A DNA stretch of 64,000 nt, taken from the IMG/VR virus record IMGVR_UViG_3300002026_000020. One strand, written 5' to 3'. The DNA is from a virus. The notes below the pieces were generated by a model that saw only the letters and a program-made list of their open reading frames with translations, was not told where the DNA came from and did not search any database. Of the stretch, positions 25,993 through 45,621 are shown one piece after another (position 1 is the first letter of the stretch; every line of letters begins with the position of its first letter). The translations under genes and the position numbers were made by a program.

Positions 25993-26028
25993 ATTATGGT
26001 TCCGTCAGTAATGACATAAAACTCACGA

Positions 26029-26114
26029 ACGAGGATAGGTCGCTCTTATCAGATTCGGGAGGAATCCTTCGACGAGGATAGGTCGCTCTTATCAGATTCG
26101 GGAGGAATCCTTCG
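26029..26114 (+). repeat. Perfect 43-nt tandem duplication
   Basis: acgaggataggtcgctcttatcagattcgggaggaatccttcg twice. Confidence 0.95.
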
Positions 26115-26186
26115 CCTAAAGCGGAGGGGAATCGCCATGCGTAGGTTTGTAGGCACGCTTCCAATAAAGAAAGCAACCTTCACCAT

Positions 26187-26277
26187 GCGTCCGTGCGTTG
26201 AGTGGCTGAAAACCTCCGACTCTTAATCGGAATGAGTTTATCTCACATCGTAGGTTCGAATCCTACCGGACGCACCA
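26187..26277 (+). tRNA. tRNA-Lys(CTT) with long variable arm
   Basis: TCCGA-CTCTTAA-TCGGA, 18-nt variable region, CCA. Confidence 0.85.
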
Positions 26278-26314
26278 TCAAAGGTTTTTCAAGTTTACCT
26301 ATAAACTTGTGCAT

Positions 26315-26405
26315 GCATCCGTGCGTTGAGTGGCTGAAAACCCCCGCCTTTTAAGCGGACGAGACTTGTTCTCCATCGTAGGTTCGAATCCTACCGGATG
26401 CACCA
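26315..26405 (+). tRNA. tRNA-Lys(TTT) with long variable arm
   Basis: CCGC-CTTTTAA-GCGG; paralog of the previous tRNA. Confidence 0.85.
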
Positions 26406-26641
26406 GACGCAGTTGACGGTACAACAAGAGGAAATAAACCGTATTGGCATTTCACTGGCTTCGGTCTGCCCAGCGGAGTGTCACGCTACCATAGGTAGAA
26501 ACTAATAAAGACCGATAGGTAAGGATGTAGTCAGCATAGACTACTGCGAAAGCGGTTCATCCGATGCCGAAATTTCATGCTGATAAGGTGCTGCAAGCGT
26601 TCGTCCTTTGCGCCAGCATACCCGACAATAAAGGACTTTAT

Positions 26642-26733
26642 GGGAACAGGACAGTAAGGAATCCACGGGGATTCACCGGATTGTAAACCCGGACCCTTCG
26701 GGGCACAAGGTTCGACTCCTTCCGTTCCCACCA
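26642..26733 (+). tRNA. tRNA-Tyr(GTA), atypical 8/4-like
   Basis: CCGGA-TTGTAAA-CCCGG, 4-bp T stem, extended D region. Confidence 0.65.
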
Positions 26734-26734
26734 A

Positions 26735-26820
26735 AATGCGTGTCTCGTACATCAGAGGGTTTCTGGTGGGTGTCTGCAAAACACATAGAGTTTGGGGTTC
26801 GACTCCCCCACGCATTTCCA
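26735..26820 (+). tRNA. tRNA-Cys(GCA), atypical 8/4
   Basis: AATGCGTG/CACGCATT acceptor, GTGT-CTGCAAA-ACAC, U73, CCA. Confidence 0.7.
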
Positions 26821-26823
26821 TAT

Positions 26824-26897
26824 GCCTGCGTAGTATAGTGTTATTACAACGCCTTTGTATCGCGAAAACGGGGGTTAGATTCCCTCCGTAGGCTCCA
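26824..26897 (+). tRNA. tRNA-Thr(TGT), weak anticodon stem
   Basis: GCCTGCG/CGTAGGC acceptor, loop TTTGTAT, CCA. Confidence 0.65.
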
Positions 26898-26951
26898 AAT
26901 ATTTCTGTCTCCCAACCACTTGTTAGTATAAATACTGGTAGGGAGATACAT

Positions 26952-27371
26952 ATGACTACATGCTTACATTGTGGAAAAGAACTTGTAATACATAAAGACA
27001 AAAATAAAAAGTTTTGTAACAATAAATGTCAGCAAGATTATCAATATGAACAAAAAGTAAAGTTATGGAAAGATGGAAGGCTAAAGGAAACCAGCGGTGA
27101 TTATCAAATAGCAAGAACTATTCGCCGGTATCTTTTTGAAAAACATGGTAATAAATGTTGTGAATGTGGTTGGGATAAAATAAACCCGATAACTGGTAAA
27201 TGCCCGTTAGAAGTTGAACATATAGATGGAAACCATGAAAATAATAAAGAAGAAAACTTAACTCTTCTTTGTCCAAATTGTCATTCATTGACTCCTACCT
27301 ATAAAGCATTGAATAGAGGAAAGGGTAGAAATCAAAGGATGAAAAGGTATAAAGAAGGAAAAACATTTTAG
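26952..27371 (+). CDS. HNH homing endonuclease
   Basis: LEVEHIDGNHENN..ENL.LLCPNCH. Confidence 0.9.
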   Translation: MTTCLHCGKELVIHKDKNKKFCNNKCQQDYQYEQKVKLWKDGRLKETSGDYQIARTIRRYLFEKHGNKCCECGWDKINPITGKCPLEVEHIDGNHENNKEENLTLLCPNCHSLTPTYKALNRGKGRNQRMKRYKEGKTF

Positions 27372-27374
27372 AAT

Positions 27375-27472
27375 GCTGCTTTAGCTCAGTTGGTAGAGCA
27401 ATAGTTTTGGTTGACTGAAATCAACTTCCAGTAAACTATAGGTCGTCTGTTCAAGTCAGACAAGCAGCACCA
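27375..27472 (+). tRNA. tRNA-Thr(TGT) with 22-nt insertion (27409-27430) in the anticodon
   Basis: Canonical D and T arms; ATAGT-TTT[GGTTGACTGAAATCAACTTCCA]GTAA-ACTAT. Confidence 0.8.
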
Positions 27473-27573
27473 GTGTCTCTTTGTTTCTCACCTTGCATAC
27501 AGGAGCATCCCTCAAGATGACTCAAACATGGTGTTGTTTCCTTTCGACATTATCAAAGAAAAGAAACAGGTAT

Positions 27574-27649
27574 AGGCGGTTAGTATACTAGGTGTTTACA
27601 TTCGTCTGTTAAACGAAAGAAGGTGGTTCGAATCCACCGCTGCCTGCCA
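27574..27649 (+). tRNA. tRNA-Asn(GTT)
   Basis: TTCGT-CTGTTAA-ACGAA, G73, CCA. Confidence 0.85.
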
Positions 27650-27654
27650 AGCAT

Positions 27655-27743
27655 TGAAGAGTACCCGAGTGGTAGCAGGGGTCTGACTGTTAATCAGAAA
27701 GCAGAAATGCTCGCCGTAGGTTCGAATCCTACCTCTTCAGCCA
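27655..27743 (+). tRNA. tRNA-Asn(GTT) with long variable arm
   Basis: TCTGA-CTGTTAA-TCAGA; AGCA-GAAA-TGCT variable arm. Confidence 0.85.
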
Positions 27744-28110
27744 AAACAAAGCTGGATAAACAATCCGCCCTGCCAACCTTCACCTGTCCTCGTAGGGGAT
27801 AGTAAACTTCTCTCCAGCATCCGAAAGGATTTGAGGGGTTAGTAAAGGTAAAAGACCTTCCGTAGTAGCCGAGCGTGTCGGCGGCGGAGCACCATTTCAA
27901 CGGATACGATGAATCCGACAGCCGCAATGGGCTGTGAAAATTAGTTGCTGGGTATAGAAGTATCTACTCAGCGGCAACCAACGAGCCATCACCGAGAACT
28001 TTAGCTGAGAGGCAAAGCGTTTCACTCATAAAAAGAAACCAGCTTCACCATTTTTGGATTACTGTGATATAATGGGTATAAATACTTTGTAGCAAAGGAG
28101 ATTTACCCAC

Positions 28111-28644
28111 ATGACAGAAAATCATAGAAAGCTAGTTGAAGCAAATTGTATTCATTGTAATAAAATAATACTAACCAGACCGGATAGAGTAAAAAAGTTT
28201 TGCTCAAAACTATGTAAAAAAATACATAGAAATGTTGAAGTGAAATGCACCAATTGTGGTAAATTAACTCTAAAGAAAAAATCGGCTCTTGCCAATTCAA
28301 AACATGAAATATATTTTTGTAGTAGAGAGTGTAAAGATTTCGCTCAAAGTATCAAGGGTGGTTGTGAGATAATAAGACCTTCTCACTATGGAAATGGTGG
28401 TTTACATTTTTACAAAAGCCTAATAAATAAAACTGACAATCCTAAATGTTGCGATTGTGGTGAAACAAAAAGATATACATTATGTGTTCATCATATAGAT
28501 AGTGATCGTGAAAATAATTCAGTAGATAATTTAGAAATAGTTTGTGCAAATTGTCACATGAAAAGACATCTAAAACTTATAGATGGTGAGTGGCAATATG
28601 GCGCAAAGTATCTTACACCAAGAGAAGATTTAAAAATCATATAA
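28111..28644 (+). CDS. HNH homing endonuclease
   Basis: VHHIDSDRENNSVDNLEIVCANCH. Confidence 0.9.
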   Translation: MTENHRKLVEANCIHCNKIILTRPDRVKKFCSKLCKKIHRNVEVKCTNCGKLTLKKKSALANSKHEIYFCSRECKDFAQSIKGGCEIIRPSHYGNGGLHFYKSLINKTDNPKCCDCGETKRYTLCVHHIDSDRENNSVDNLEIVCANCHMKRHLKLIDGEWQYGAKYLTPREDLKII

Positions 28645-28645
28645 T

Positions 28646-28721
28646 GGGGGCACATGTACCTCGCAGGCGAACCGCACTTGCAATGCAGTTGTGATGGGTT
28701 GAATCCCCATTGTCTCCACCA
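28646..28721 (+). tRNA. tRNA-Ala(TGC), atypical D arm
   Basis: G3:U70 pair, GCA-CTTGCAA-TGC, CCA. Confidence 0.7.
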
Positions 28722-29040
28722 TTTTTCAGTAGAAGCAAATCGTAAGGTACGGCATACATAAACAAATAAGGGTATGCTGGGAGCGGCGACACCAAGCCAG
28801 GGTCTATGCAATAGGCAACACTACATTCAATATAGTAGTTGTGTAAATAAAAACACTAAAGTCACTTTACGGTGGGAAGCCTTAGTGGGTGTGGAGAAAA
28901 TCTCCTTTATTGAGCCTAAAAACTCTAAGCCCTATGGTTGTACTTTGTCGTGACGAGGGTAATCCCATAGGGGAATATCCCAAGTTTAGGCTTCGAACAG
29001 CGGTGTCCACGCGACCAACCCGGCTGACTGAAAACCATTT

Positions 29041-29465
29041 AGGTGTGTAGTATGTGTCGTATAAATGTGTTTGGCGATGCTCAGTCGTTTCATCCTGCTT
29101 GTTTGGATGGGCGGCACCACAATGGACACAGCGATGTAAACCAAACACTGCGCCAGTAAGTACGCAGGGCTACCAGCCCTCGAAGAGTAGAGTATGTGCG
29201 CCTCTATCGCTTACGCTTCGGGGTTTGTTCCCGAAAGTCACACCCAAACCCATTTTTGTTTACCATGTGTGTCGTATAATGTTCTGTGCGAAGTCCGGCG
29301 AAATGACCATCACGGCTCCTGTGAGTCGATAAAGGGTGGTCATCTACCCTCAAAATGTAATAAAGACACAGTAAGCATAGAACAGCGCAGCCAGTACAGC
29401 GGTACTTTTAATTCCGTAGGAGTAGAGTATGTGCGCCTCTATCACAAGGCATGGTAAACAAAAAC
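29041..29465 (+). ncRNA. Two tandem copies of an unknown pseudoknotted RNA motif
   Basis: Shared TGTGTCGTATAA, GACACAG, GCCAGTA and GAGTAGAGTATGTGCGCCTCTATC, with covarying stems. Confidence 0.65.
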
Positions 29466-29471
29466 ATTCAT

Positions 29472-29603
29472 GTGGTGGTCGTAATAATGAAACGAAGTAA
29501 AGACTGTTATCTAAGTAAGTCTTGAAGAAACCGTTTCGTGGAAGTTACAATACGCGGCAATGCAATCGCTGAGATGCTGGTTCGAGTCCAGCCCACCACT
29601 CCA
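29472..29603 (+). ncRNA. tRNA-like RNA (acceptor and T arm with large insert)
   Basis: GTGGTGG/CCACCAC-T-CCA and GCTGG-TTCGAGT-CCAGC. Confidence 0.6.
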
Positions 29604-29742
29604 TTACAGTGTATCACACGCCTGTCAACTTGACTGGCATGGTGGGAAAAATAAGTATTGATAAATAAAAATACCCTCTACAATAGAGGCATGAGCAACG
29701 AAAGAAGCTCGGTTGACAAATATATATGAGTAGCTTGAATAT

Positions 29743-29817
29743 GGGTTGCAAGCATTAGGGCTGATGCAATGGTCTTTTAAACCATGGAAGTAGGATCGAC
29801 CCCTACGCGACTCACCA
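29743..29817 (+). tRNA. tRNA-Lys(TTT)
   Basis: ATGGT-CTTTTAA-ACCAT, CCA. Confidence 0.85.
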
Positions 29818-29922
29818 TAAGAGATTACAGGACAACTCTCTATAAACACTGTACCATTTAGCGAATACAGAAATCAGTTTCGGGTACTAGACATAAATCC
29901 GTCAACAAAAACAACCAATCAC

Positions 29923-29999
29923 GCGCCTAGTGTTCGCCGGTTGTGGACGGTGGTCTTATAAACCATTCTGAGGGTGTTCAACTCACCATAGGCGTACCA
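29923..29999 (+). tRNA. tRNA-Ile(TAT)
   Basis: GTGGT-CTTATAA-ACCAT, CCA. Confidence 0.8.
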
Positions 30000-30147
30000 T
30001 TTTGTAATCGTTGAAGAAGAGGATAGCGCAACTCATAGAACCTTCGGGGGAGAGTTGCCGTATCAATGCGATTCCTTCATTCAACCGTGTTCTCCAGCGG
30101 AACCCGATAACATTGATACGAGTTGCATCTGGATATACAACTCACAT

Positions 30148-30225
30148 GCACCCATCGTCTAACCCGGCTCAGGACAGGAGACTTTCATTCTCCCGATTGG
30201 GGTTCAAATCCCCATGGGTGTACCA
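30148..30225 (+). tRNA. tRNA-Glu(TTC)
   Basis: GGAGA-CTTTCAT-TCTCC, CCA. Confidence 0.9.
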
Positions 30226-30284
30226 TATGACGAAGTTTGTTGGTTTGATACTCAGAGCTAATTAGATAGCGAAACCAACATCAT

Positions 30285-30359
30285 GCTCTATTAGAACAGT
30301 GGCTAGTTCATTCGGCTTTCAACCGAAAGAAGAGGGATCGAAACCCTTATAGAGTACCA
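30285..30359 (+). tRNA. tRNA-Glu(TTC)
   Basis: TTCGG-CTTTCAA-CCGAA, CCA. Confidence 0.85.
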
Positions 30360-30402
30360 AGTGTAAACGCATAAACCCTATCTGGCGGTAGGTGGCACGC
30401 AT

Positions 30403-30477
30403 CGCGGGGTGGAGAAGTGGTAACTCGCTTGGCTCATAACCAAGAGAACGCAGGTTCAAATCCTGCCCCCGCAACCA
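30403..30477 (+). tRNA. tRNA-fMet(CAT), initiator-like
   Basis: CGCGGGG start with C1:A72 mismatch, CTCATAA loop. Confidence 0.9.
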
Positions 30478-30506
30478 TACAAGTCGAGACACATGTCTCG
30501 CAAATT

Positions 30507-30580
30507 TGCGCGGTGGTGTAACGGTAGCATAATAGCCTCATAAGCTTTTGATCAGGGTTCAAATCCTTGCTGCGCTCCCA
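30507..30580 (+). tRNA. tRNA-Met(CAT)
   Basis: AGC-CTCATAA-GCT, CCA. Confidence 0.8.
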
Positions 30581-30803
30581 TTGAGTCTTCTTTCATAACG
30601 AGGGTAGTAGTCTCGTTGTAGTTTCTTTGACTGAAAAAGAAACGCTATACTAACATCTGGTGCCGGGAAAGTGAATGTGGCGTGAGCCAACCTTTGCCGA
30701 GATTCACCACCTTTTATCCCTCCAGCCTCTTCACAATGCAGAAACGGAGACTTGAAAAAACAAGTATCGCTCATAGGGAACGATGAGTGTGGGAGCCTTT
30801 TAT

Positions 30804-30879
30804 GCGTCAATAGCTCAGTTGGTAGAGCGGAACTTTTCCAAAGTTCGGGTCGCAGGTTCAAATCCTGTTTGACGCTCCA
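30804..30879 (+). tRNA. tRNA-Gly(TCC)
   Basis: GAACT-TTTCCAA-AGTTC, U73, CCA. Confidence 0.92.
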
Positions 30880-30938
30880 TTTAAAATAGTTCAATAGTCA
30901 AGTATCGAACTAATATAAATATATGGTATAATATATTT

Positions 30939-31589
30939 ATGTTCTATACCATCTACAAGATAACAAACCGAGTAAACAACAAGATTTATGTCGGCAAACA
31001 TCAAACCGAAACCCTTGACGATTGTTATATGGGTTCTGGAACTCTTTTACTTAGAGCGATAGAGAAGTATGGTATTGATAAGTTTGATAAAGAAATACTA
31101 TATGTATTTGACAATGAAGAACAAATGAATAATATGGAAAAAGAAATTGTCAACGAAGAGTTTTTACTAAGGGAAGATGTTTATAACTTGAAGGTTGGTG
31201 GTGACGGTGGGTTTGGATATATAAACTCAAAAGATACCACCGAGACTACGAAAAAAGGGAGAATAGAATGTGATAAAATAATGTTGAGTAAGTATGGAGA
31301 TGATTGGAGACAAATCTTAGGGAAAAAAGCTGGCAATGCTTCGTGGGATAAACGAAAAAAGACTGGCAATATCCTTATAGGAAATCCATACTCATTCTTA
31401 GGTAAAAGACACACTGATGGAGCTAAAAAAATAATAGGGCAAAAAAATTCTATACATCAATCCGGAAATAAAAATTCTATGTACGGAATGATGTGGATTT
31501 ATAATTTAGAAACTTTAGAAAGTAAAAGGATTGGTAATAGAGAAGAAATACCTATTGGTTGGGTTAAAGGAAGAAAAATAAAAAAATAA
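30939..31589 (+). CDS. GIY-YIG (Seg-like) homing endonuclease
   Basis: TIYKITN..NNKIYVGKH..YMGSG, YNL..GG.GG. Confidence 0.9.
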   Translation: MFYTIYKITNRVNNKIYVGKHQTETLDDCYMGSGTLLLRAIEKYGIDKFDKEILYVFDNEEQMNNMEKEIVNEEFLLREDVYNLKVGGDGGFGYINSKDTTETTKKGRIECDKIMLSKYGDDWRQILGKKAGNASWDKRKKTGNILIGNPYSFLGKRHTDGAKKIIGQKNSIHQSGNKNSMYGMMWIYNLETLESKRIGNREEIPIGWVKGRKIKK

Positions 31590-31592
31590 GAT

Positions 31593-31668
31593 GCAGCAGT
31601 AACTCAGAGGCTAGAGTGCGACTTTTCCAAAGTCGATGTCGAGATTTCGAAATTCTCCTGCTGCACCA
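31593..31668 (+). tRNA. tRNA-Gly(TCC)
   Basis: CGACT-TTTCCAA-AGTCG, CCA. Confidence 0.85.
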
Positions 31669-31799
31669 GTTTCGGTTGAATATGTGGATGGGTGCCACCC
31701 TAAAAAGTCGCTTTCAACCAACCCCCTAGAAATAGGAAGTATTCACATTATTCATTGTGCTATTAGGTTCTCTTTATCCTAAGAAACAAAAAAGAATAT

Positions 31800-31875
31800 G
31801 TAGAGCAGTAGCATTAAGTAATGCACCCGTTGTTTATACGGGACTAAGTTGGTTCAATCCCAACCCTCTGCACCA
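31800..31875 (+). tRNA. Atypical tRNA, anticodon TTT (Lys?)
   Basis: CCCGT-TGTTTAT-ACGGG with G33; T arm and CCA present. Confidence 0.5.
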
Positions 31876-32381
31876 GCCAGCCCCTTGAAAAAGGGCTACT
31901 TGTGATACTACAAGGAACAGTAAGGGGATTCTGCACAGGGTTATGAGGTATCGCCAGCACCTATAGCTGGTACGAGCCGAGTAATGTTCTGTGAGTGAAA
32001 ACGCAAGGGCAGAACAGCCTGACCAGTCATTCATCTGGCAAACGGACCCAAAGTATCAAAACCATCGACGCACGATGATGAGAACAAACCTACGAGTTTT
32101 TCAGTAGTCACGAAGGATACAGATCGTATCAACTGAGTGATGAAAGGGCAGAGAAAAACTAAGCGACCTTCAAAGTAGAGTCTCCCGAGTTTCGTGCGGG
32201 TCGGATCAAACGGGATTCGGTTGAGGCTCCGCTTCTTTTTCCAACCGTGGAGGATCCCGAAGTATCGGAAATTCGAGACATGAATACACGGATACCATGT
32301 CATCTTATGTCAACCACAGCACAGAGAGTGCCACACTTCTTATAAAGAACTAAGAAAGTGTCGTAAAGGGGGTTGACACAT

Positions 32382-32458
32382 GCTCCCCTAGCTCATCTGG
32401 ATAGAGCAAATGTTTTCTAAACATTAGGTAGAAGGTTCGAGTCCTTCGGGGAGCGCCA
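32382..32458 (+). tRNA. tRNA-Arg(TCT)
   Basis: AATGT-TTTCTAA-ACATT, CCA. Confidence 0.92.
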
Positions 32459-32465
32459 TTTACAT

Positions 32466-32540
32466 TGCCTCTTAGCTCAGTGGTAGAGCGATTGACTGTT
32501 AATCAATTGGTCCGGGGTTCGAATCCCTGAGAGGCAGCCA
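32466..32540 (+). tRNA. tRNA-Asn(GTT)
   Basis: ATTGA-CTGTTAA-TCAAT, CCA. Confidence 0.93.
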
Positions 32541-32839
32541 ACCAAAAACCCTATGATGACGAGTTGTAAGTCATAGGTCGTTTATTACCATTCGCTTTAA
32601 GTAGCAGCGGCTCGCAAGAGTGGTGATGGTAATAGGTGTTATTGCCGCGAGCATCCCGCGAACAACTCTTAGGGAAGCTCCAAGTAGAAATGAACCGAGT
32701 CCAGTTGCATTCTACTTGACCTATACTGTGTATAGACGGAAATACGATTGGACCGCGAAAAGTTGGATGAAGAACGGGGACTTCACCAACCGCATAGATT
32801 TCTCCCTACCGTGGGGAGTCTAAAACATTCCCCACACAT

Positions 32840-32914
32840 GCCCGAGTAAGCTAATGAATAGACTGACTCTTTCCTAAAGAGTATATCTTGGTTTGATTCC
32901 AAGCTTGGGTGCCA
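32840..32914 (+). tRNA. tRNA-Arg(CCT)
   Basis: ACTCT-TTCCTAA-AGAGT, CCA. Confidence 0.8.
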
Positions 32915-33124
32915 TATGCCGTGTATACCACATTGGCAGAAATAGAGCAGATATCCGAATGCTGCTCAGAAGTGGGTAGCCTGTCCCAAACGACAAAACA
33001 GGGCATCGTGATTCCAGTTACCTGCGGTACAGCGGGGCATATCATGACTGGTGGATGTTGACTAATACTATATAAGGCGAAAGACAATATAAAGTCTTAG
33101 TGTGCGTACCAAACACTGCATTAT

Positions 33125-33199
33125 GCTGGATATGAACAATGGCTGTTCGGCGCTCTCATAAGGCGCTTCCAGAAGGTTCGATTCCTTCATCCAGCACCA
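33125..33199 (+). tRNA. tRNA(CAT), elongator Met or Ile2
   Basis: GCGCT-CTCATAA-GGCGC, CCA. Confidence 0.85.
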
Positions 33200-33382
33200 T
33201 TTACTGTAGGGTAGTTCAGCGGCAGATCAAATCTGAGAGGAAGCGAGAAATTGCTTCTAGGTCGCAAATAGTGACCGTTCGAGGATTGCGCGGGTAAAAC
33301 GGGCTTTGCTCGGGTTCGACTCCCCCTCTTATAGTAATCCTCTTGTGGAGTTAGTATTCTCCTACAGATAAAAATACATTAT

Positions 33383-33457
33383 GGGGGTTTGGTGATAATG
33401 GTAGCACTCGTGCTTTGCAAGCATGAAGCAAGAGTTCGATTCTCTTAACCTCCACCA
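33383..33457 (+). tRNA. tRNA-Ala(TGC)
   Basis: G3:U70, CGTGC-TTTGCAA-GCATG, CCA. Confidence 0.9.
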
Positions 33458-33628
33458 TTCAATTACGGGTTTGTGGGTTTAGATTTCCAGGCAGGCAAAG
33501 AAAACCCTCATGTTGCTTATGTCCAAGGGCGGCTCCTTGGGAGGGGCGGAATCCCCGAATGTTGGTTCGACTCCAACCGTAAGCCCGGAGCCTCGTACTC
33601 GTCACTCTGGCAACGACGAGCCTTTTAT

Positions 33629-33702
33629 GCTGTCATCGGATAATGGTATTCCGTCTGTTTCGTAATCAGAATATAGAGGTTCGATTCCTCTTGACAGCAC
33701 CA
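33629..33702 (+). tRNA. tRNA-Thr(CGT)
   Basis: TCTG(T)-TTCGTAA-(T)CAGA, CCA. Confidence 0.85.
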
Positions 33703-33717
33703 AACTAATCAAGCTAC

Positions 33718-34056
33718 TTATGTCAAACCACCAACGGTTCCTATACTTTTCTTCTTTTGTTTCTTTATTTCTTTTACTTGATACCCGTATAAGAAATGAC
33801 CATTCTTGAGATATATTATAGCTCTATCACTTTGAATAACATCAAGAGTCAGTTTATCAACAGGTTCCCCGTCTCTGTCACCCCTCTTGATCTTCTCCAT
33901 ACCAACTATTTTTTGAGCGCCGAAGTTATCACTTATAACAGTGTCACCAATTTCAACTGTTTGTGAGTTATCAAACATATAATCACCAACGGTATCAAAC
34001 ACATCTCCCAAACCTTCGTTCATTTTACTCTTCAGATAGTAAGATTTGAAACCCAT
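33718..34056 (-). CDS. Hypothetical late protein
   Basis: AGGAGG RBS and TATAAATA on the minus strand near 34070-34079. Confidence 0.7.
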   Translation of the reverse strand: MGFKSYYLKSKMNEGLGDVFDTVGDYMFDNSQTVEIGDTVISDNFGAQKIVGMEKIKRGDRDGEPVDKLTLDVIQSDRAIIYLKNGHFLYGYQVKEIKKQKKKSIGTVGGLT

Positions 34057-34145
34057 AGACGCCTCCTACCATATTTATAAAAAACACCCCTATTGCATAA
34101 TTCAGAAAACTGACATAATAGAAACATAACCAAAAGGAAAACATC

Positions 34146-34598
34146 ATGGCTCAAGTTCGCATTCGTAAGGCACTCCAGATCAAGAACCGTCTCGCTGGGG
34201 AAATCGCCAATCTCAACAAGCTCATTCAGAACAACAACTCTCATCGTGAGGGTGTGACTCAGTTCGATGTGAAGAAGCTGCTTGTTGACCGCTCCAACAC
34301 AGTTGCAAAGCTGGTTGCCGTGAAGTCATCTCTCGCTACTGCTAATGTTGCAATTTATGGGAAGCTTACTGTTCTTGCAGAACTCAAGGATGAGATTAAG
34401 TTCCTTCGTGGATTGAACACCAACTCGGGTGAGGATGAAGTTGGCTACGGCGAGCGTGCTAAGACCGTCAAGGTTGTTGCTGAAGTAACGGCAGCCGATG
34501 TTGAACTTGCAGTCACCCACTTGACACTTGAGATTGAAAAGCTCCAAGATGAAGTTGACTACTTCAACTCCACTGTCGAAATCACCATTCCAGATTGA
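34146..34598 (+). CDS. Coiled-coil hypothetical protein
   Basis: 150 aa ORF with AAGGA RBS and upstream promoter. Confidence 0.75.
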   Translation: MAQVRIRKALQIKNRLAGEIANLNKLIQNNNSHREGVTQFDVKKLLVDRSNTVAKLVAVKSSLATANVAIYGKLTVLAELKDEIKFLRGLNTNSGEDEVGYGERAKTVKVVAEVTAADVELAVTHLTLEIEKLQDEVDYFNSTVEITIPD

Positions 34599-34906
34599 AA
34601 GGGGAGTACCAGGGTAGAGGATCAGAGAAGCTTCGGTAACGCGCCCTAAAAAGGCAATTATGGCGGCTGGGAAACTAGCCACTTATACCGGTAAAGATAA
34701 TGAACGATTCTTCGGAATCAGAAAACTAAACATTCTGTTCATAAAGATTCACAAGTCATTACTCTTATATCAAAGCTCTTCAAACCGATTCTTCAAAGAA
34801 CCTCTACCCTGCGAAACCCGCTCTGTCTCACACACTTCCAACCCCTCCAAAAAAAGATTATTGAGATAATCAAAAAACCTGTTATAAATAACATTAGAGA
34901 AAAACA

Positions 34907-35008
34907 ATGAACACCTTATCCACCCAATCATGGCATCAGTCACAGCCCAGCGTATCGCGCTTGGATAGACTCGTTCCATTTATTGACAACGGGGGTTCAG
35001 GTTTCTAA
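34907..35008 (+). CDS. Attenuator leader peptide 2 (MNTLSTQSWHQSQPSVSRLDRLVPFIDNGGSGF)
   Basis: Follows TATAAATA at 34883; 33 codons; 3' end complementary to the terminator 5' arm. Confidence 0.78.
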   Translation: MNTLSTQSWHQSQPSVSRLDRLVPFIDNGGSGF

Positions 35009-35032
35009 AAGGATAAAATCCTAAAAGACACC

Positions 35033-35067
35033 GAAACCCCCTGGCGAAAACCAGGGGGTTTCTTTTT
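35033..35067 (+). terminator. Intrinsic terminator (attenuator) upstream of tRNA array 2
   Basis: GAAACCCCCTGG-cgaaaa-CCAGGGGGTTTC-TTTTT, near-identical to 25475. Confidence 0.92.
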
Positions 35068-35116
35068 GACAAGTTTATATTGTAGATTATGTTTGGGGCG
35101 GCTTCCGCCCCATCAT

Positions 35117-35207
35117 GGAAGGTAGAACCGATGTGGTATCGGAATTCTTTGCTAAAGAAATTGTTCCCTTTATTGGGAATGGAGTTCGATTCTCCCACTT
35201 TCCGCCA
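35117..35207 (+). tRNA. tRNA-Ser(GCT)
   Basis: TTCT-TTGCTAA-AGAA, long variable arm, G73, CCA. Confidence 0.85.
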
Positions 35208-35252
35208 CAAAAAGCTTGAGGATTGCTATAAACCTATTGGAATCTTCGTCAT

Positions 35253-35326
35253 GCTGCTTTCGGATAGTGGTATTCCGCTTGCTTGGTATGCAAGATACGC
35301 TAGTTCGATTCTAGCAAGCAGCACCA
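35253..35326 (+). tRNA. tRNA-Thr(GGT)
   Basis: CTTGC-TTGGTAT-GCAAG, CCA. Confidence 0.88.
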
Positions 35327-35330
35327 TTTT

Positions 35331-35404
35331 GGGTGATTAGTACAATGGTAGAACATCTCTTTGACGTAGAGAAAACGGGGGTTCGATTCCCTCATTACCC
35401 ACCA
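35331..35404 (+). tRNA. tRNA-Val(GAC)
   Basis: TCTCT-TTGACGT-AGAGA, CCA. Confidence 0.88.
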
Positions 35405-35553
35405 AAACGATATGCGAAACTGCGCTGGTGCAAGACCTGGGCTTGAGCTATAAACGCTCACGGAGTATGCCGCCTAAAACGGATGTTACGAGGAAGGCTG
35501 CCTTGGTTATTCAGAGGGGTTCGATTCCCGGGGATGACATACATATCGTGTAT

Positions 35554-35643
35554 GGAACAGAGAAGCATAGGGGATATGCGTTCGCCTGGAAAGCGAAAGG
35601 TCGCCTCACGGTGGCAGAGTTTCGATTACTCCTTGTTCCGCCA
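35554..35643 (+). tRNA. tRNA-Ser(GGA)
   Basis: TTCGC-CTGGAAA-GCGAA, long variable arm, G73. Confidence 0.85.
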
Positions 35644-35678
35644 TATTGACAATGAAAAATACGAGTTATAATACTTGT

Positions 35679-36059
35679 ATGAGCGATTATGAGAAACAAC
35701 TTGAAGAAGCTAACGAGAAGCTGAAAGGCGAGATAGAAGCTCTTCAAAAAGAAAAAGATGAGGTTGAAGAGAAGTGGAGAACCCACGAAATCTTCGATGA
35801 CAGTGAGTTGTGGTCGCTCGACTATACGATGTCTTGCTTCATCTTGCCAAGACTCAAGAAACTCAAAGACACTAAGAGTGGATATCCAAGTGAATTGGAA
35901 TCTCATGAAGAGTGGGCAGCTATCATGCAGAAGATGATAGATGGGTTTCAAGCGATAGTTGACGATGAAAGATACCCCGCAGGAAGCATGAAACAGAAAG
36001 AAACAATAGAGGCTGGGCTGAAGTTGTTTGCCGAGTATTTCCAAAACCTGTGGGATTGA
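35679..36059 (+). CDS. Conserved phage hypothetical protein
   Basis: WSLDYT..FILPRL..GYP..GL.LF..YF..LWD pattern. Confidence 0.75.
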   Translation: MSDYEKQLEEANEKLKGEIEALQKEKDEVEEKWRTHEIFDDSELWSLDYTMSCFILPRLKKLKDTKSGYPSELESHEEWAAIMQKMIDGFQAIVDDERYPAGSMKQKETIEAGLKLFAEYFQNLWD

Positions 36060-36066
36060 TGGTTAT

Positions 36067-36156
36067 GGATAGGTGGCAGAGTGGTCTATTGCGCTGGTCT
36101 TGAAAACCAGAGGGGGCGAAAGTCCTCCGGGGGTTCGAATCCCTCCTTATCCGCCA
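36067..36156 (+). tRNA. tRNA-Ser(TGA)
   Basis: CTGGT-CTTGAAA-ACCAG, canonical. Confidence 0.95.
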
Positions 36157-36267
36157 GATTTATGTTGACATGTCTTCGGAAGATAGTACCAGTCTCTTCC
36201 CCGCTTTTGCCAGTGGCTTGCGAGTTGATACGAAAAAATCAACGGACCTTACTGGATGTCAATGTAT

Positions 36268-36354
36268 GGAAGCACGGGAACATGGTGTTCAAGCTGCCTC
36301 GAAAGCAGTCCTGGGGGCTTGCTCCCAACCGTTCGATTCGGTGTGCTTCCGCCA
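36268..36354 (+). tRNA. tRNA-Ser(CGA), 8/4 structure
   Basis: GGAAGCAC/GTGCTTCC 8-bp acceptor, ACCG/CGGT T stem. Confidence 0.85.
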
Positions 36355-36533
36355 AGTCTTAGTGAGTGATACACCTTTCCTTATAAGGTGTTCGCCCTCT
36401 TGTATCCTACAGGAAGGCGCTATGATATGCGTATGAGAAAGAGATACGAGCCATAAGACTCCGTGCTAAAGACACGGCAGGCAGACCATCGAAGCCTCAT
36501 ACTTTGAAAACTATATACTGTAGATATGTTCAT

Positions 36534-36607
36534 GGGCGATTAGTACATTGGTAGTACATCGGTTTTACATTCCGAAGAAAAAAGTTCGATTCTTTTATTG
36601 CCTACCA
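36534..36607 (+). tRNA. tRNA-Val(TAC)
   Basis: TCGG(T)-TTTACAT-(T)CCGA, CCA. Confidence 0.85.
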
Positions 36608-36656
36608 TACACGGTCTTAAAATAAACTTGAGGATAGTTGACCGAAACCTCTACAT

Positions 36657-36731
36657 GCCCCGATCATCTAACGGAAGGATACTTCGCTACGAACGAAGCA
36701 ATCGCAGGTTCAAATCCTCGTTGGGGTGCCA
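36657..36731 (+). tRNA. tRNA-Arg(ACG)
   Basis: CTTCG-CTACGAA-CGAAG, CCA. Confidence 0.88.
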
Positions 36732-36801
36732 AAGAGTTAGTTGCTTGTAAAATACTCAAATCCCCCGCATGCAGGGGACAGCCGATGAACAAGCGTTTCA
36801 T

Positions 36802-36880
36802 GCCCGCGTATGCCGCCTGCCTTCTAAGCAGGAGAAAGCTAACTGGACACATGTAGGTTCAACTCCTACCGCGGGTGCCA
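36802..36880 (+). tRNA. D-armless tRNA-Arg(TCT)-like
   Basis: 7-nt linker replaces the D arm; CCTGC-CTTCTAA-GCAGG; T arm and CCA. Confidence 0.65.
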
Positions 36881-36886
36881 TTTTAT

Positions 36887-36966
36887 GCGGGTGTATAACC
36901 TCCGTCTGATAAGCGGTAGAAAGTTTAATTGGTAGCATGTAGGTTCAACTCCTATCACCCGCACCA
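36887..36966 (+). tRNA. D-armless tRNA-Ile(GAT)-like
   Basis: Same architecture; CCGT-CTGATAA-GCGG. Confidence 0.65.
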
Positions 36967-37021
36967 TTTTAAATCGAACCAAATATAAATACTATGATAT
37001 AATATATCATGGAGGTTCGAT

Positions 37022-37648
37022 ATGAGTTACGAAGACATAAAGAAGTATAGGAGAAGGTTCAAGGAAAAGATTGTAATGTTAATGGGTGGAAAATGTATGT
37101 GTTGTGGATATAGCAAGTGTATAAAGGCTATGGATTTACATCATGTTGATCCAACAAAGAAAGAATTTACTATCAGTCAAATGATCATCCTTAACTGGAA
37201 GCGTATCTTTAAAGAATGTCAAAAATGTGTTTTAGTATGTTCTAACTGTCATCGGGAGATACATGATAATGTAACACAATGCCCAGAAATGGTTGATATT
37301 AAATACGAATCACTGGCTCCAGATAGAAGAATAGATTGGGAATCACTTAACTTAGATAAAGACGCCATGACACTTAATGTTAAAGAACTCTCTAAAAAAT
37401 ACGGAATCAGTAGAACGGCAATACATAAAAAGTGTAAAGAAAGTAATATAAAACTTAAGGAAATTATACGCCCGTCAAAGTTTATAGTAGATTATGAGAA
37501 GTTGAAAAAACTTGTTACCGAAATGCCGTTTACAAAAATAGGTGATATGTATGGAGTTTCTGATAACGCAATTCGTAAAAGGTGTAAAGTTTTGGGAATA
37601 AAAATACCTAGATTTGGAAGAGGGTATTGGACTAAGAATAAACAATGA
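37022..37648 (+). CDS. HNH homing endonuclease
   Basis: DLHHVDP..KCVLVCSNCHREIH plus HTH tail (GVSDNAIRKRC). Confidence 0.88.
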   Translation: MSYEDIKKYRRRFKEKIVMLMGGKCMCCGYSKCIKAMDLHHVDPTKKEFTISQMIILNWKRIFKECQKCVLVCSNCHREIHDNVTQCPEMVDIKYESLAPDRRIDWESLNLDKDAMTLNVKELSKKYGISRTAIHKKCKESNIKLKEIIRPSKFIVDYEKLKKLVTEMPFTKIGDMYGVSDNAIRKRCKVLGIKIPRFGRGYWTKNKQ

Positions 37649-37664
37649 TATAATGAAATCATAA

Positions 37665-37760
37665 CGGCGCATAGGTCAGTCTGGTAGACCGCTTGCTTGG
37701 TGAACTAATATTCACTTCCATGGGAGCAAGAAGTCGCAAGTTCGAATCTTGCTGCGCCGA
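37665..37760 (+). tRNA. tRNA-Pro(TGG) with 22-nt insertion (37699-37720)
   Basis: CTTGC-TT[GGTGAACTAATATTCACTTCCA]TGGGA-GCAAG; C1-G72, A73; no encoded CCA. Confidence 0.8.
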
Positions 37761-37842
37761 CTCTCACCTAGAAATAGGTTGTTATTACCGTCGTTTAGTA
37801 ACTGTAAAAAACCTTCCGAAATGAAGGTAAACGGCATTTCAT

Positions 37843-37914
37843 CAGGCTGTGGGATAATGGTAGTCCACTCGTTTTGGAAGCGAGGAAAAGTTGGTTCGAT
37901 TCCAACCAGTCTGA
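37843..37914 (+). tRNA. tRNA-Pro(TGG)
   Basis: CTCGT-TTTGGAA-GCGAG; no encoded CCA. Confidence 0.8.
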
Positions 37915-37984
37915 TTCTTTCAATGGGGATGAAACGCCCCAGCCCATCACAAGCCTCTTTACAATGCTCAACCCGTGATGTCGT

Positions 37985-38060
37985 GGTCCTTTCGTATAGT
38001 GGTTTATTACATCTCCCTGTCACGGAGGAAATGCGAGTTCGATTCTCGCAAGGATCGCCA
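37985..38060 (+). tRNA. tRNA-Asp(GTC)
   Basis: TCTCC-CTGTCAC-GGAGG, G73, CCA. Confidence 0.92.
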
Positions 38061-38077
38061 TTCAGTTTCAAGGTTAT

Positions 38078-38152
38078 ACCCCCATCATATAAAGGCTATT
38101 ATGATAGATTGTCGATCTATTCATGCGGTTTCGAAATCCGCTGGGGGTGCCA
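38078..38152 (+). tRNA. tRNA-Asp(GTC)
   Basis: ATAGA-TTGTCGA-TCTAT, G73, CCA. Confidence 0.8.
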
Positions 38153-38179
38153 AAAATAAATAGTCATGGAGGTATTCAT

Positions 38180-38332
38180 ATGGAATCATTCATGATGATA
38201 TGTTCAATAGCAGCAAGCGTAACTGCTATTATCGTAAACGCTTACACAATCTTCACGATTCGTAAGCACCTTGGTAAGTTAGCCAAGGAAGGATATGAGA
38301 AGGTTGAGGATAAGATAAAAAAGATTCTATAA
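38180..38332 (+). CDS. Small single-pass membrane protein
   Basis: GGAGGT RBS; hydrophobic N-terminus and basic tail. Confidence 0.6.
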   Translation: MESFMMICSIAASVTAIIVNAYTIFTIRKHLGKLAKEGYEKVEDKIKKIL

Positions 38333-38335
38333 CAT

Positions 38336-38411
38336 GGGTTGTTGGTGTAAGTGGTCTACACGCTCGCCTGAAGAGCAAGAGAATACGGTTCGATTCCGTG
38401 ACAACCCACCA
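38336..38411 (+). tRNA. tRNA-Phe(GAA)
   Basis: Loop CTGAAGA, T arm, CCA. Confidence 0.85.
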
Positions 38412-38649
38412 TGCAAAGGAAGTATGTCTTGCTAAAAACCCCAATGGGGGTATTAGTGTAAAGGTTAGCACGCCCCCATCAAAGGGGCAGTTCGGGTTCG
38501 ATTCCCGTTTTGAGGTTTACCTCACAAGGCAAAATGAGTAGGGAGGCGACGGCTGAACGAATACTTCCGTAAGTGGATGATTGCTCGCCACTATAAAAGA
38601 CTAAGAAGCTTTGGTTCTCAGATTGCCGAATACCTTAAAGTCGGCGCAT

Positions 38650-38768
38650 TGGGGGTTCGTCTAATGGTAGGACGAGAGACTTTGCAAGACAAAGGAATCA
38701 TATGGTTCAACTCCATAGTCTTGCGCCAGGATCTCTCTGTGGGGGTTCGAATCCCTCACCCCCAACCA
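38650..38768 (+). tRNA. tRNA-Gln(TTG) with nested 45-nt mini-tRNA (38684-38728)
   Basis: AGAGA-CTTT[GCAAGAC...TATGG-TTCAACT-CCATA-GTCTTGC-G-CCA]GGA-TCTCT. Confidence 0.8.
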
Positions 38769-38825
38769 TTTTCGGTTACATATAAATAATAGTGTATAAT
38801 ATATGTAACAGATAAGGAATAGAAT

Positions 38826-39536
38826 ATGTCACAAAGAGCAAAACGAAGCATAATATGGAAAATAACAAAAGAAAATCTTATAAATGTTGTAAAGACATCT
38901 AAATCTTTTAGTGAAATACTAAAACACTTCGGTATGATAAACAAAGGTGGAAACTGTATAACTCTCAAAAAAAGATGCGGGGAGGAAAATATAGATATAT
39001 CACATATACCAATTGGTAATTCTTCTAATAGGGGGAGAAAGTTTATAAAAGACAAGACGCCATTAGAAAAAATATTAGTAGTCGATAGTAACTTTTCAAG
39101 AGTTCATCTAAAAAAGAGAATTATTGAAGAAAATATTATAGATTATAAATGTAAAAAATGTGGCAATACTGGAGAATGGCTTGGTGAGAAAATATCCTTA
39201 CATTTAGAACACATAAATGGAGTTTCTAATGATAATAGATTAGAAAATATATGTTTCTTATGCCCTAACTGTCACAGTCAAACTGAAACTTATGCTGGAA
39301 AAAACTTGCCGAGAGTAAAATATAATTGTTCTGAATGTGGAAAAGTAATAACGAAGTGCTGTAAGAGTGGGAAATGTCTCTCATGTTTGGGAAAGAATAA
39401 AAGGGTTTTCGATGCTACGAAAGAAACTTTAGAATCTCTAATAGAAACAAAACCTATGACTAAAATTGGCGAGATGTTTGGTGTTTCTGACAATGCTATA
39501 CGAAAAAGATGCAAAAAATTAGGAATATCTTTATAA
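38826..39536 (+). CDS. HNH homing endonuclease
   Basis: LHLEHINGVSNDNRLENICFLCPNCHSQT. Confidence 0.9.
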   Translation: MSQRAKRSIIWKITKENLINVVKTSKSFSEILKHFGMINKGGNCITLKKRCGEENIDISHIPIGNSSNRGRKFIKDKTPLEKILVVDSNFSRVHLKKRIIEENIIDYKCKKCGNTGEWLGEKISLHLEHINGVSNDNRLENICFLCPNCHSQTETYAGKNLPRVKYNCSECGKVITKCCKSGKCLSCLGKNKRVFDATKETLESLIETKPMTKIGEMFGVSDNAIRKRCKKLGISL

Positions 39537-40181: not shown

Positions 40182-40306
40182 GAGAGAGTGGAGGAAATTA
40201 GTATACTCACCGCTATAAACGGCGGCGTCTCTTTGGGTGTACAACCACTGACGGAGTGATATGCTCCGTAGCAGACATGTAGGTTCGAACCCTACCTCTC
40301 TCACCA
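40182..40306 (+). ncRNA. Leu-like tRNA derivative with very large variable region
   Basis: GAGAGAG/CTCTCTC-A-CCA, T arm, abnormal anticodon loop. Confidence 0.55.
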
Positions 40307-43545: not shown

Positions 43546-43548
43546 TTT

Positions 43549-43867
43549 TTGTATATCAGACAATCGCAAGAGGACTCCAAACTCTTGAGGAAAGTCGGGG
43601 CACCATAAAAAAGTATACCAGCTAACGGCTGGCACATCTTTCGGTAGGTGTGAGGAAAGGGCAGTAAGAAATATACCGCCGATGACTCCGCAAGGAGAAC
43701 AGGTAAGGGTTGAAAACACGACGTAAGAAACCGTGCTTTGTATAGTAATATACATCGAATGTAACCCCTATACGGTGCAAGGCAGTAATTGCCGCTTGAG
43801 GGTGTCAGTGATGACACTCCTAGACAAATGATTGTCCAACGACAGAACCCCGCTTACCGATATACAA
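43549..43867 (+). ncRNA. rnpB: RNase P RNA
   Basis: CR-I GAGGAAAGTC, AGACAAATGATTGTC, CR-V ACAGAACCCCGCTTA; P1 gtatatc/gatatac. Confidence 0.92.
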
Positions 43868-43931
43868 TACCGATTTTTATGATATAATGTAATCAAACCA
43901 TTATAAATACATTATGGAGGGTTTGATTACA

Positions 43932-45577: not shown

Positions 45578-45621
45578 CAATAAGTCTCCTGACATGTATA
45601 AATAATGTCAGGAGATTTTTT

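Follow-up and report, generated by a model that had tools for sequence, protein, structure and literature searches.

Short N-CCA-ended inserts in the anticodon loops of phage tRNA genes look like a new kind of tRNA intron

The window analysed here is a stretch of 64,000 nucleotides from a virus (IMG/VR record IMGVR_UViG_3300002026_000020). Its genes for tRNA-Thr(TGT), tRNA-Pro(TGG) and tRNA-Gln(TTG) are each split by a small insert (Table 1). A first-pass annotation had described 22-nt inserts in the Thr and Pro genes, each with a short stem and loop, a T discriminator and CCA, and this description was confirmed at both places. The two inserts share 16 of their 22 bases. Both stems open with a G-U pair, and they differ by double compensatory changes at stem pairs 4:15 and 5:14. 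With the intron option switched on, ARAGORN predicts an intron of 22 nt in each gene, and the Rfam tRNA model still gives 61 bits (Thr) and 58 bits (Pro) despite the inserts. The Pro insert follows nt 33, which is unambiguous given the Pro-type body of the gene. For the Thr insert the boundary lies after nt 34 or nt 35, a one-base ambiguity that exists because a G flanks each side. ARAGORN also offers Thr(GGT) with an intron at 38/39 for the Pro gene, but this conflicts with the Pro-type acceptor stem and with the orthologues. It had further been claimed that removing the inserts restores exact 7-nt loops. This holds, as the loops become TTTGTAA (Thr) and TTTGGGA (Pro) and match those of insert-less genes in sister phages. 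Both genes are identical in at least six independent assemblies, so assembly error is excluded. No RNA run was found that contains this DNA. Window positions 26000-39000 were also compared with the contigs of four DNA runs, which gave only short noisy matches from the tRNAs of other organisms.

Table 1. Features of the window discussed in the text (all on the + strand).
Feature	Start	End	Strand	Evidence and remarks
Pol-beta-type nucleotidyltransferase-like ORF	12805	14307	+	adjoins ligase; ESM Atlas feature score 0.94
Candidate exon-joining enzyme	14311	17535	+	AlphaFold pLDDT 92; Foldseek; PHROG cytidyltransferase
tRNA-Thr(TGT) paralogue without insert	26824	26897	+	cloverleaf weaker
HNH endonuclease ORF	26952	27371	+	directly 5' of Thr gene; PHROG E 7e-18
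tRNA-Thr(TGT) with insert	27375	27472	+	perfect cloverleaf, encoded ACCA end; ARAGORN intron option
Microhelix insert, 22 nt, in tRNA-Thr(TGT)	27409	27430	+	6-bp stem, 6-nt loop, T discriminator, CCA
HNH endonuclease with HTH ORF	37022	37648	+	directly 5' of Pro gene; PHROG E 2e-25
tRNA-Pro(TGG) with insert	37665	37761	+	C1-G72/A73 body; own 3' end without encoded CCA
Microhelix insert, 22 nt, in tRNA-Pro(TGG)	37699	37720	+	homologous to Thr insert
tRNA-Pro(TGG) paralogue without insert	37842	37915	+	ARAGORN
tRNA-Gln(TTG) with insert	38650	38768	+	ARAGORN; Rfam 50 bits
Mini-tRNA insert, 45 nt, in tRNA-Gln(TTG)	38684	38728	+	follows nt 35
HNH endonuclease ORF	38826	39536	+	directly 3' of Gln gene; PHROG 7e-48
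Bacterial type A RNase P RNA, phage-encoded	43548	43872	+	Rfam 187 bits

The insert of the Gln gene is a mini-tRNA with a 7-bp acceptor stem, a 10-nt connector, a 5-bp T stem, a G discriminator and CCA. The gene that carries it is the sole Gln(TTG) among the called tRNA genes of the window, and the same is true in the tRNA array of the relative L093, whose orthologous Gln insert is 46 nt long. Related metagenomic phages add two more carriers, Gly(TCC) with an insert of 35 nt and Leu(TAA) with a mini-tRNA of 44 nt. The carriers now comprise five tRNA species (Thr, Pro, Gln, Gly and Leu) in three phage lineages, and all have U34. Their phages form a group of huge phages in which several tRNA genes are affected. 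Insert lengths range from 22 to 46 nt and the sites from 33/34 to 36/37. If the three Pro variants are taken as one class there are six distinct inserts: Thr, Pro, two Gln, Gly and Leu. All six begin at a paired base, and in all of them exactly four bases at the 3' end, the N-CCA, are unpaired. In the folds the 5' junction coincides with the start of pairing, and 4 nt separate the last paired base from the 3' junction. Each of them mimics a tRNA acceptor, with a helix at +1 and then a single-stranded discriminator and CCA. The Gln and Leu mini-tRNAs also carry a T stem-loop on the acceptor stem. Its 5-bp stem abuts the acceptor 3' strand, and its loops, TTCAACT in the Gln insert of the window and TTCGACT, are tRNA-like. 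The loop of the 35-nt Gly insert is not T-like, and a T arm is missing from the 22-nt class. Relatives also have variants of the Pro and Gln inserts, which retain the helix, the position of the discriminator and the CCA. The earlier proposal of a family of tRNA-mimic inserts finds strong support here, and the Gly and Leu inserts and the Pro and Gln variants enlarge that family.

Searches beyond these phages gave no further members. IMG/VR was scanned with patterns of the 22-nt class and yielded chance matches in coding DNA only, and BLAST of the Pro gene, the Gln gene and the Thr region against GenBank phages returned no insert-bearing relatives. A donor tRNA for the inserts was searched for and none was found. 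The literature searched does not describe minihelix inserts with an N-CCA end in tRNA genes.

All five tRNA species have insert-less counterparts in sister phages, and their 7-nt loops are the loops predicted for the spliced genes. Alleles without the insert are found for Thr in L044 (4850-4924, the positional counterpart of the window gene), for Gly in L045, and for Gln and Leu in L090. The insert-less Pro(TGG) genes of L081 and L099 have the same loop and are non-allelic. The contig of the sister phage L081 stops 8 nt short of its Gln gene. The insert-less Gln gene of L090 (11563-11636) has a tRNA body identical to that of the insert-bearing L093 gene. L090 also has the Thr gene with its insert (602-699), identical to the window at 98 of 98 positions, and four inserts (Pro, Gln, Gly and Leu) occur in the L093 array. 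The arrays are mosaics at 70-99% identity, and insert-bearing genes persist in lineages that are only 70-90% identical.

The inserts change in a way that preserves their folds. There are five double compensatory pair changes between the Gln inserts of the window and L093, across the three mini-tRNAs 35 of 36 stem cells are paired, and two compensatory pairs are seen in the 22-nt class. The Pro inserts of L090 and L093 have changed in the loop and discriminator and kept the stem and CCA. Judging from this covariation, the insert structure is under selection. The host tRNAs are held together in the same way. The Pro orthologues in L090 and L093 have a compensatory change at pair 2:71, the acceptor and anticodon stems of Gln have compensatory changes, and the split anticodon-loop bases are conserved. 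A tRNA pseudogene is expected to lose its cloverleaf pairing and loop bases, but the carriers have perfect cloverleaves and score 50-61 bits with Rfam despite their inserts. The compensatory changes in both insert helices and host cloverleaves imply that these are not decaying pseudogenes. The first-pass annotation had named pseudogene-like decay of the tRNA bodies as evidence against its reading, and no such decay is seen.

We think there is an even chance that the inserts are intron-like intervening sequences that mimic a tRNA acceptor end and split otherwise functional tRNAs, with removal by RNase P, RNase Z-type cuts and sealing by a ligase. That they are introns was also the earlier claim. 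The conserved split loops, the intact cloverleaves and the covariation of the inserts stand behind it, while excision from RNA, and every RNA-level step of it, is something we infer from sequence. In the pre-tRNA the cloverleaf would form and its anticodon stem would bear one additional helix. As on minihelix-NCCA substrates, RNase P would cleave at the base that opens the insert helix, which is the 5' junction. It prefers a U before the cleavage site, and the base preceding the insert is U in four of the five tRNA species. A 3'-end enzyme of the RNase Z type would cut directly past the insert CCA. The tRNA halves would stay paired, with 3'-OH and 5'-phosphate ends, and an ATP-dependent RNA ligase, such as the Rnl2-like ORF of the phage, could then seal them directly. 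RNase Z cuts directly after an encoded CCA, accepts substrates consisting of an acceptor stem only and prefers a mature 5' end (PMC7479834). It must be noted that several points count against this pathway. The enzyme for the 3' cut would be a putative RNase Z-type one only. CCA inhibits RNase Z in some bacteria. The insert-less Thr and Pro paralogues mean that those two genes could be dispensable.

The N-terminal part of the candidate ligase (residues 1-480) is an ATP-dependent RNA-ligase-like domain, and a cytidylyltransferase-like domain is fused to it. The motifs EKMDS, EGVV and VKG are invariant. Sequence searches of Pfam, PHROGs and the PDB gave the ligase-like domain no name. It was named by fold search only, with T4 Rnl2, REL1, archaeal Rnl, Trl1, Rnl5 and Rnl1 as the top Foldseek matches of the model, and we take the ORF to be a predicted RNA-ligase-fold protein. 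The family also occurs in an insert-free relative and in many marine phages, which makes it permissive for the pathway rather than specific to it. One relative encodes T4 Rnl1. A tblastn search found no T4 Rnl1 in the window, and Rnl1 homologues from the database could not be linked with this phage. The neighbouring nucleotidyltransferase-like ORF is a lead only, with NTP_transf_2 in 33% of one cluster.

The phage also encodes an RNase P RNA, of which the literature searched contains no phage example. It lacks the usual P15-P17 module with its CCA-binding loop, and this counts against the pathway too. Orthologues are present in L090 and L099 and there is none in the L093 array. One can imagine that the inserts depend on the phage's own RNase P RNA, but L099 has the RNA without any insert, and the L093 array has its four inserts without the RNA. 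We regard this RNA as part of the setting and not as something that the inserts need.

It is possible, and we suggest it only tentatively, that these make up a third class of tRNA intron in terms of mechanism, which may be called the 'mini-tRNA intron'. Neither a ribozyme nor a splicing endonuclease would excise such an intron. The enzymes that process tRNA ends (RNase P, and RNase Z after the CCA) would do so, and an ATP-dependent RNA ligase of the phage would join the exons. The intron may have originated by the reverse reaction. A repair ligase would paste a free mini-tRNA (5'-phosphate, CCA-3'-OH) into an anticodon loop that a host anticodon nuclease had cut, and the product would then be copied back into DNA. 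The insert sites, 33/34 to 36/37 in U34 tRNAs, match the cut sites of anticodon nucleases.

Another line of reasoning starts from the HNH genes. The inserts could mainly protect against homing endonucleases by breaking the target of the neighbouring HNH enzyme in their own tRNA gene, and spread by gene conversion that the endonuclease drives, with removal from RNA secondary. We consider this unlikely. The first-pass annotation had tied the inserts to HNH genes, and within the window the tie is real, since an HNH ORF directly precedes the Thr gene and another the Pro gene, and one directly follows the Gln gene. At the Thr site of L044 neither the HNH ORF nor the insert is present, the stems differ as co-conversion predicts, the arrays are mosaic, and L090 retains the pair of HNH ORF (at 65% identity) and Pro insert. 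However, the tie is not conserved among the relatives. L090 has the identical Thr gene and no HNH ORF between Thr1 and Thr2, and in L093 the Pro, Gln, Gly and Leu inserts have no adjacent HNH ORF, the one upstream of Pro being absent there. Linkage is thus not constant, as it should be for a mobile intron linked to a homing endonuclease. With about 10 endonuclease ORFs among about 48 tRNAs, chance adjacency is common, and the two upstream HNH proteins are not closely related to each other. The N-CCA end, the T loop and the covariation are left unexplained by disruption of a target site.

The insert could also be the product itself, a released mini-tRNA or microhelix that serves as a decoy for host toxins or acceptor-end enzymes, or as a source of tRNA halves. 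The host tRNA would then be a mere carrier that is not rejoined. Selection on the insert helix, T loop and CCA is what this predicts. Many further tRNA-like RNAs in the arrays have acceptor and T arms, and together with a conserved abiF-motif RNA they suggest RNA-based counter-defence. We still judge this explanation improbable. A mere carrier has no need of split loop bases and cloverleaves that are conserved with compensatory changes. The same tRNA body occurs with and without the insert, and a scripted motif scan for free-standing copies of the mini-tRNA found none.

Least probable is that neutral or disabling DNA insertions, for example a small palindromic mobile element, sit in redundant tRNA genes and are never removed: the inserts are small inverted repeats, vary in presence between close relatives and have insert-less Thr and Pro paralogues nearby, but no target-site duplication flanks any of them when compared with insert-less alleles, their terminal repeats stop short with N-CCA beyond the repeat at the 3' end, the internal T stem covaries, the carriers score at least as well as their paralogues, Gln(TTG) has no spare copy, and the genes persist across diverged lineages.

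If the inserts are removed as we propose, universal tRNA end-trimming enzymes and a repair ligase can serve as a splicing machine. This would be a new route of intron origin, and the RNA ligases of large phages would gain a housekeeping role beyond the repair of damage. Standard tRNA finders call insert-bearing genes 'undetermined' or give them the wrong isotype, so phage tRNA sets are under-counted. The system is directly testable, with genes of about 100 nt, defined candidate enzymes and alleles of one tRNA that naturally carry or lack the insert.

To our knowledge bacterial-type tRNA genes are interrupted only by self-splicing group I introns. Those of bacterial, cyanobacterial and phage tRNAs, such as tRNA-Leu(UAA), resemble the inserts in sitting in the anticodon loop, in being polymorphic between relatives and in often travelling with homing endonucleases. 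However, they are self-splicing ribozymes of more than 200 nt and the inserts are 22-46 nt long and end in N-CCA. A cmscan of positions 24000-50000 at gathering thresholds matched no group I intron, only tRNA, RNase P, tmRNA and abiF. The protein-spliced introns of Archaea and eukaryotes (EndA and ligase) are also short and lie in or near the anticodon loop, and non-canonical positions are known. Removal by protein and then ligation is what we propose for the inserts as well. However, these introns need a bulge-helix-bulge of two 3-nt bulges and a 4-bp helix. None can be drawn here because both insert junctions flank the base of one hairpin. The inserts differ further in splitting the anticodon itself and in their setting, a bacterial phage with tmRNA and bacterial RNase P RNA. 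In tRNA punctuation of mitochondrial transcripts and in MALAT1-mascRNA, a tRNA-like acceptor helix within a longer RNA marks the cuts of RNase P and RNase Z, and the anatomy of the inserts matches the minihelix or microhelix N-CCA of RNase P minihelix and external-guide substrates. Unlike these, the inserts lie inside another tRNA and the flanks would need to be rejoined, a combination that is not described. The last parallel is the repair system of phage T4, where PrrC cuts the loop, Pnk and Rnl1 heal and seal it, and the ligase acts at positions 33-35. The insert sites coincide with typical cut sites of anticodon nucleases. T4 repair restores damage inflicted by the host and involves no genomic insert, and RNase P and RNase Z would leave ends that can be sealed without prior healing. 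Set beside all of these systems, the sequences of the inserts make them look like a new kind of tRNA intron.

The tRNA-Thr(TGT) and tRNA-Pro(TGG) genes of the window are each split in the anticodon loop by an insert of the same build. Each has a 6-bp stem whose first pair is G-U, a 6-nt loop, a T and a CCA end. The two inserts agree at 16 of 22 bases, and at stem pairs 4:15 and 5:14 both partners differ, with pairing kept by compensation. The first-pass annotation described them correctly from the sequence. It placed them after nt 34 in Thr and nt 33 in Pro, and this is borne out, although in Thr a G on each side makes the boundary ambiguous and nt 35 fits too. ARAGORN with its intron option calls a 22-nt intron in both genes, and both score as tRNA in Rfam. 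ARAGORN also offers Thr(GGT) as a reading of the Pro gene, but this conflicts with the C1-G72/A73 acceptor stem and with the orthologues. In tRNA-Gln(TTG) the insert forms an entire mini-tRNA: a 7-bp acceptor stem and a connector lead to a 5-bp T stem with the T loop TTCAACT, and a G serves as discriminator before the CCA.

Coordinates of the features discussed, in the window unless a related phage sequence is named
Feature	Location	Remarks
tRNA-Thr(TGT) insert	27409-27430	22 nt
tRNA-Pro(TGG) insert	37699-37720	22 nt
tRNA-Gln(TTG) with insert	38650-38768	
Gln mini-tRNA insert	38684-38728	45 nt
Promoter-like box region	37640-37664; L090:10625-10640; L093:13576-13608	TGATATAAT
RNase P RNA	43548-43872; L090:14249-14574; L099:19973-20297	bacterial type A; window copy 187 bits (Rfam)
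tmRNA	49019-49385	just downstream of the tRNA array
abiF motif	37945-37981; L081:14673-14709; L090:10852-10888; L093:13814-13850	conserved in four phages
tRNA with anticodon CTA	45505-45578	
tRNA-Lys(CTT)	26187-26277	91 nt
tRNA-Lys(TTT)	26315-26405	91 nt
tRNA-Thr(TGT), class II-like	L045:5392-5479	88 nt
tRNA-like RNAs	29472-29603; 40182-40306; L099:4416-4546; L099:18230-18393	125-164 nt
Split ribonucleotide reductase gene	L097:17965-22599	325-kb relative
Ligase candidate ORF	14311-17535	
Neighbouring ORF	12805-14307	

Relatives were found by using the ribonucleotide reductase gene that immediately precedes the array as a first anchor, and then genes inside the array. These searches yielded five related arrays. 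A sixth and more distant relative, G001 (L017), has insert-less Pro and Leu genes within its available part.

Inserts in tRNA genes of the window and related phages
Phage	Thr(TGT)	Pro(TGG)	Gln(TTG)	Gly(TCC)	Leu(TAA)
Window	insert	insert	insert	none	none
L090	insert	insert	none	none	none
L044/L093/L094	none	insert	insert	insert	insert
L045/L081	none	none	contig stops before gene	none	beyond contig end
L099 (325-kb NCBI contig)	none	none	none	none	none

The L044 array continues in L093 and L094, and its inserts are 35 nt in Gly, 22 nt in Pro and mini-tRNAs of 46 nt in Gln and 44 nt in Leu. Because L045/L081 has an insert-less Gly gene, the boundaries of the Gly insert are unambiguous. The insert-less Thr gene of L044 lies at the window site and shares the acceptor stem, D arm and 3' flank with the window. 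L090 matches the window Thr gene at 98 of 98 bases and carries a variant of the Pro insert. Its Gln gene is insert-less, and the body is identical to that of the insert-bearing Gln gene of L093. The arrays are mosaics, with identities of 70-99%, and recombination among co-infecting phages can account for the patchy distribution of inserts. Endonucleases probably help this recombination.

Every insert follows one rule. The first base pairs with the base directly before the discriminator, and the final four bases are the discriminator and CCA. Insertion falls at 33/34 (Pro), 34/35 (Thr, Leu), 35/36 (Gln) or 36/37 (Gly), and the preceding base is T in four tRNA species and C in one. All five insert-bearing species have a wobble T, against about 40% of array tRNAs by our own count. 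There were at least three independent insertions, represented by the 22-nt class, by the mini-tRNAs of Gln and Leu and by the Gly insert. The chance that three independent inserts all end exactly in CCA is of the order of 1e-5, with one base of boundary slack allowed. The idea of a family of tRNA-mimic inserts is well supported and extends to relatives, while their removal from RNA is a strong inference from sequence.

Could these be decaying pseudogenes? Such decay, which the first-pass annotation had named as the contrary sign, was not seen, and both the host tRNAs and the inserts keep their pairing by compensation. The Gln inserts of the window and L093 are widely diverged; both partners were replaced in acceptor pairs 3, 4 and 7 and in T-stem pairs 1 and 2, one pair is now a mismatch, and the GCCA end is unchanged. 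The three Pro insert variants differ in loop and discriminator and are constant in stem and CCA. In the host tRNAs there are compensatory changes at Pro pair 2:71, at Gln acceptor pairs 3 and 5 and at Gln anticodon-stem pairs 2 and 3, while the split anticodon-loop bases stay fixed. Folded without constraints, the RNAs form a cloverleaf in which the insert is an additional helix on the anticodon stem. Among the called genes, neither the window nor L093 has a Gln(TTG) gene other than the insert-bearing one. Taken together, these points argue that the genes are not decaying pseudogenes.

We argue that the inserts are probably removed to leave working tRNAs. A specific route through RNase P, RNase Z and a ligase is a tentative proposal. 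The inserts have a helix that begins at +1, end in a 3' N-CCA tail and mostly follow a U at -1, and this anatomy is presumably that of minihelix and microhelix substrates of RNase P. RNase P would cut on the 5' side and an RNase Z-type candidate after the CCA. Cuts by either enzyme give 3'-OH and 5'-phosphate termini. The halves of the tRNA would remain paired, and as direct substrates they could be rejoined by an ATP-dependent RNA ligase. Bacterial and archaeal RNase Z cut directly after an encoded CCA; the enzyme accepts acceptor-stem-only substrates and prefers a mature 5' end (PMC7479834).

These phages also encode an RNase P RNA. We considered whether it tracks the inserts, but L099 has the RNA and no inserts, and the L093 array, with four inserts, lacks the RNA. 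The phage RNA does not follow the inserts, and therefore any RNase P step would be the host's. The phage genes directly follow tRNA-Leu(GAG), share 92% identity and differ in their helices by compensatory changes. In RNase P RNA, CCA is normally bound by the P15-P17 module, and a short hairpin takes its place in the phage RNA. No phage RNase P RNA is mentioned in the literature that we searched.

The ligase candidate has a confident model for its N-terminal 480 residues (pLDDT 92). Structurally it is most similar to T4 Rnl2, trypanosome REL1, an archaeal RNA ligase, fungal Trl1, Naegleria Rnl and T4 Rnl1, and the EKMDS, EGVV and VKG motifs are invariant across 40 homologues. The ligase-fold domain is fused to a cytidylyltransferase-like domain. 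Members of this 1074-aa fusion family are widespread in contigs of marine phages, where they are annotated as NMN adenylyltransferase. The adjoining ORF is Pol-beta nucleotidyltransferase-like (an Atlas lead only), and the pair is a candidate RNA repair module. Pairing of an RNA ligase with a Pol-beta nucleotidyltransferase is reported in phage RNA repair modules (PMC7824862). Because the ligase family is also found in an insert-free relative and in many marine phages, it should be considered a permissive factor and not a marker. The more distant G001 encodes T4 Rnl1.

The window comes from a large phage genome, and no close relative was found among GenBank phages. Its DNA is also present in microbial-mat metagenomes, with partial relatives in freshwater and soil runs; no RNA run is among the sequencing runs that contain it. 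The array spans 20 kb (25.5-45.6 kb) and has 44 tRNA genes by ARAGORN and several further ones by Rfam. The tRNA that reads amber codons (anticodon CTA) is conserved in L017, L090 and L093; despite it, long window ORFs are intact under the standard bacterial code. Both window Lys genes have a class II-like D arm and a long variable arm, and sister phages have ordinary 75-nt Lys tRNAs at these sites. Here, as in the Thr gene of L045, whole tRNA bodies seem to have been exchanged under fixed anticodons. The long tRNA-like RNAs have a perfect acceptor stem and keep the T arm and CCA, with long unrelated hairpins for the D and anticodon arms. Between the tRNA genes for Pro and Asp, a 37-nt stretch matches the Rfam abiF RNA motif with 38.7-40.1 bits (the gathering score is 37), and this RNA could be a decoy against an abortive-infection system. 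The window, L090 and L093 all have an extended -10 promoter-like box 8-11 nt upstream of the insert-bearing Pro gene, which suggests that this gene has its own promoter.

About 10 HNH or GIY-YIG endonuclease ORFs are interspersed with the array tRNAs. The first-pass annotation placed both genes with a 22-nt insert directly downstream of an HNH gene. This is true of the two window genes and of the Pro gene of L090, but the Thr gene of L090 and every insert-bearing gene of L093 lack an adjacent HNH gene. L044 has two Thr genes without an HNH gene between them, and the two HNH proteins upstream of the window Thr and Pro genes are not close relatives of each other. The link between inserts and HNH genes is weak. 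In L097 an intein with a LAGLIDADG endonuclease splits the ribonucleotide reductase gene, which is uninterrupted in the window.

No description of N-CCA inserts in tRNA genes was found in the papers that we searched. They differ from group I introns in being too small, and Rfam gave no match. They differ from bulge-helix-bulge introns in that both junctions flank one hairpin. The closest working likeness may be the tRNA-like punctuation elements that are cut by RNase P and RNase Z, and the rejoining of tRNA halves would resemble the anticodon-loop repair of T4.
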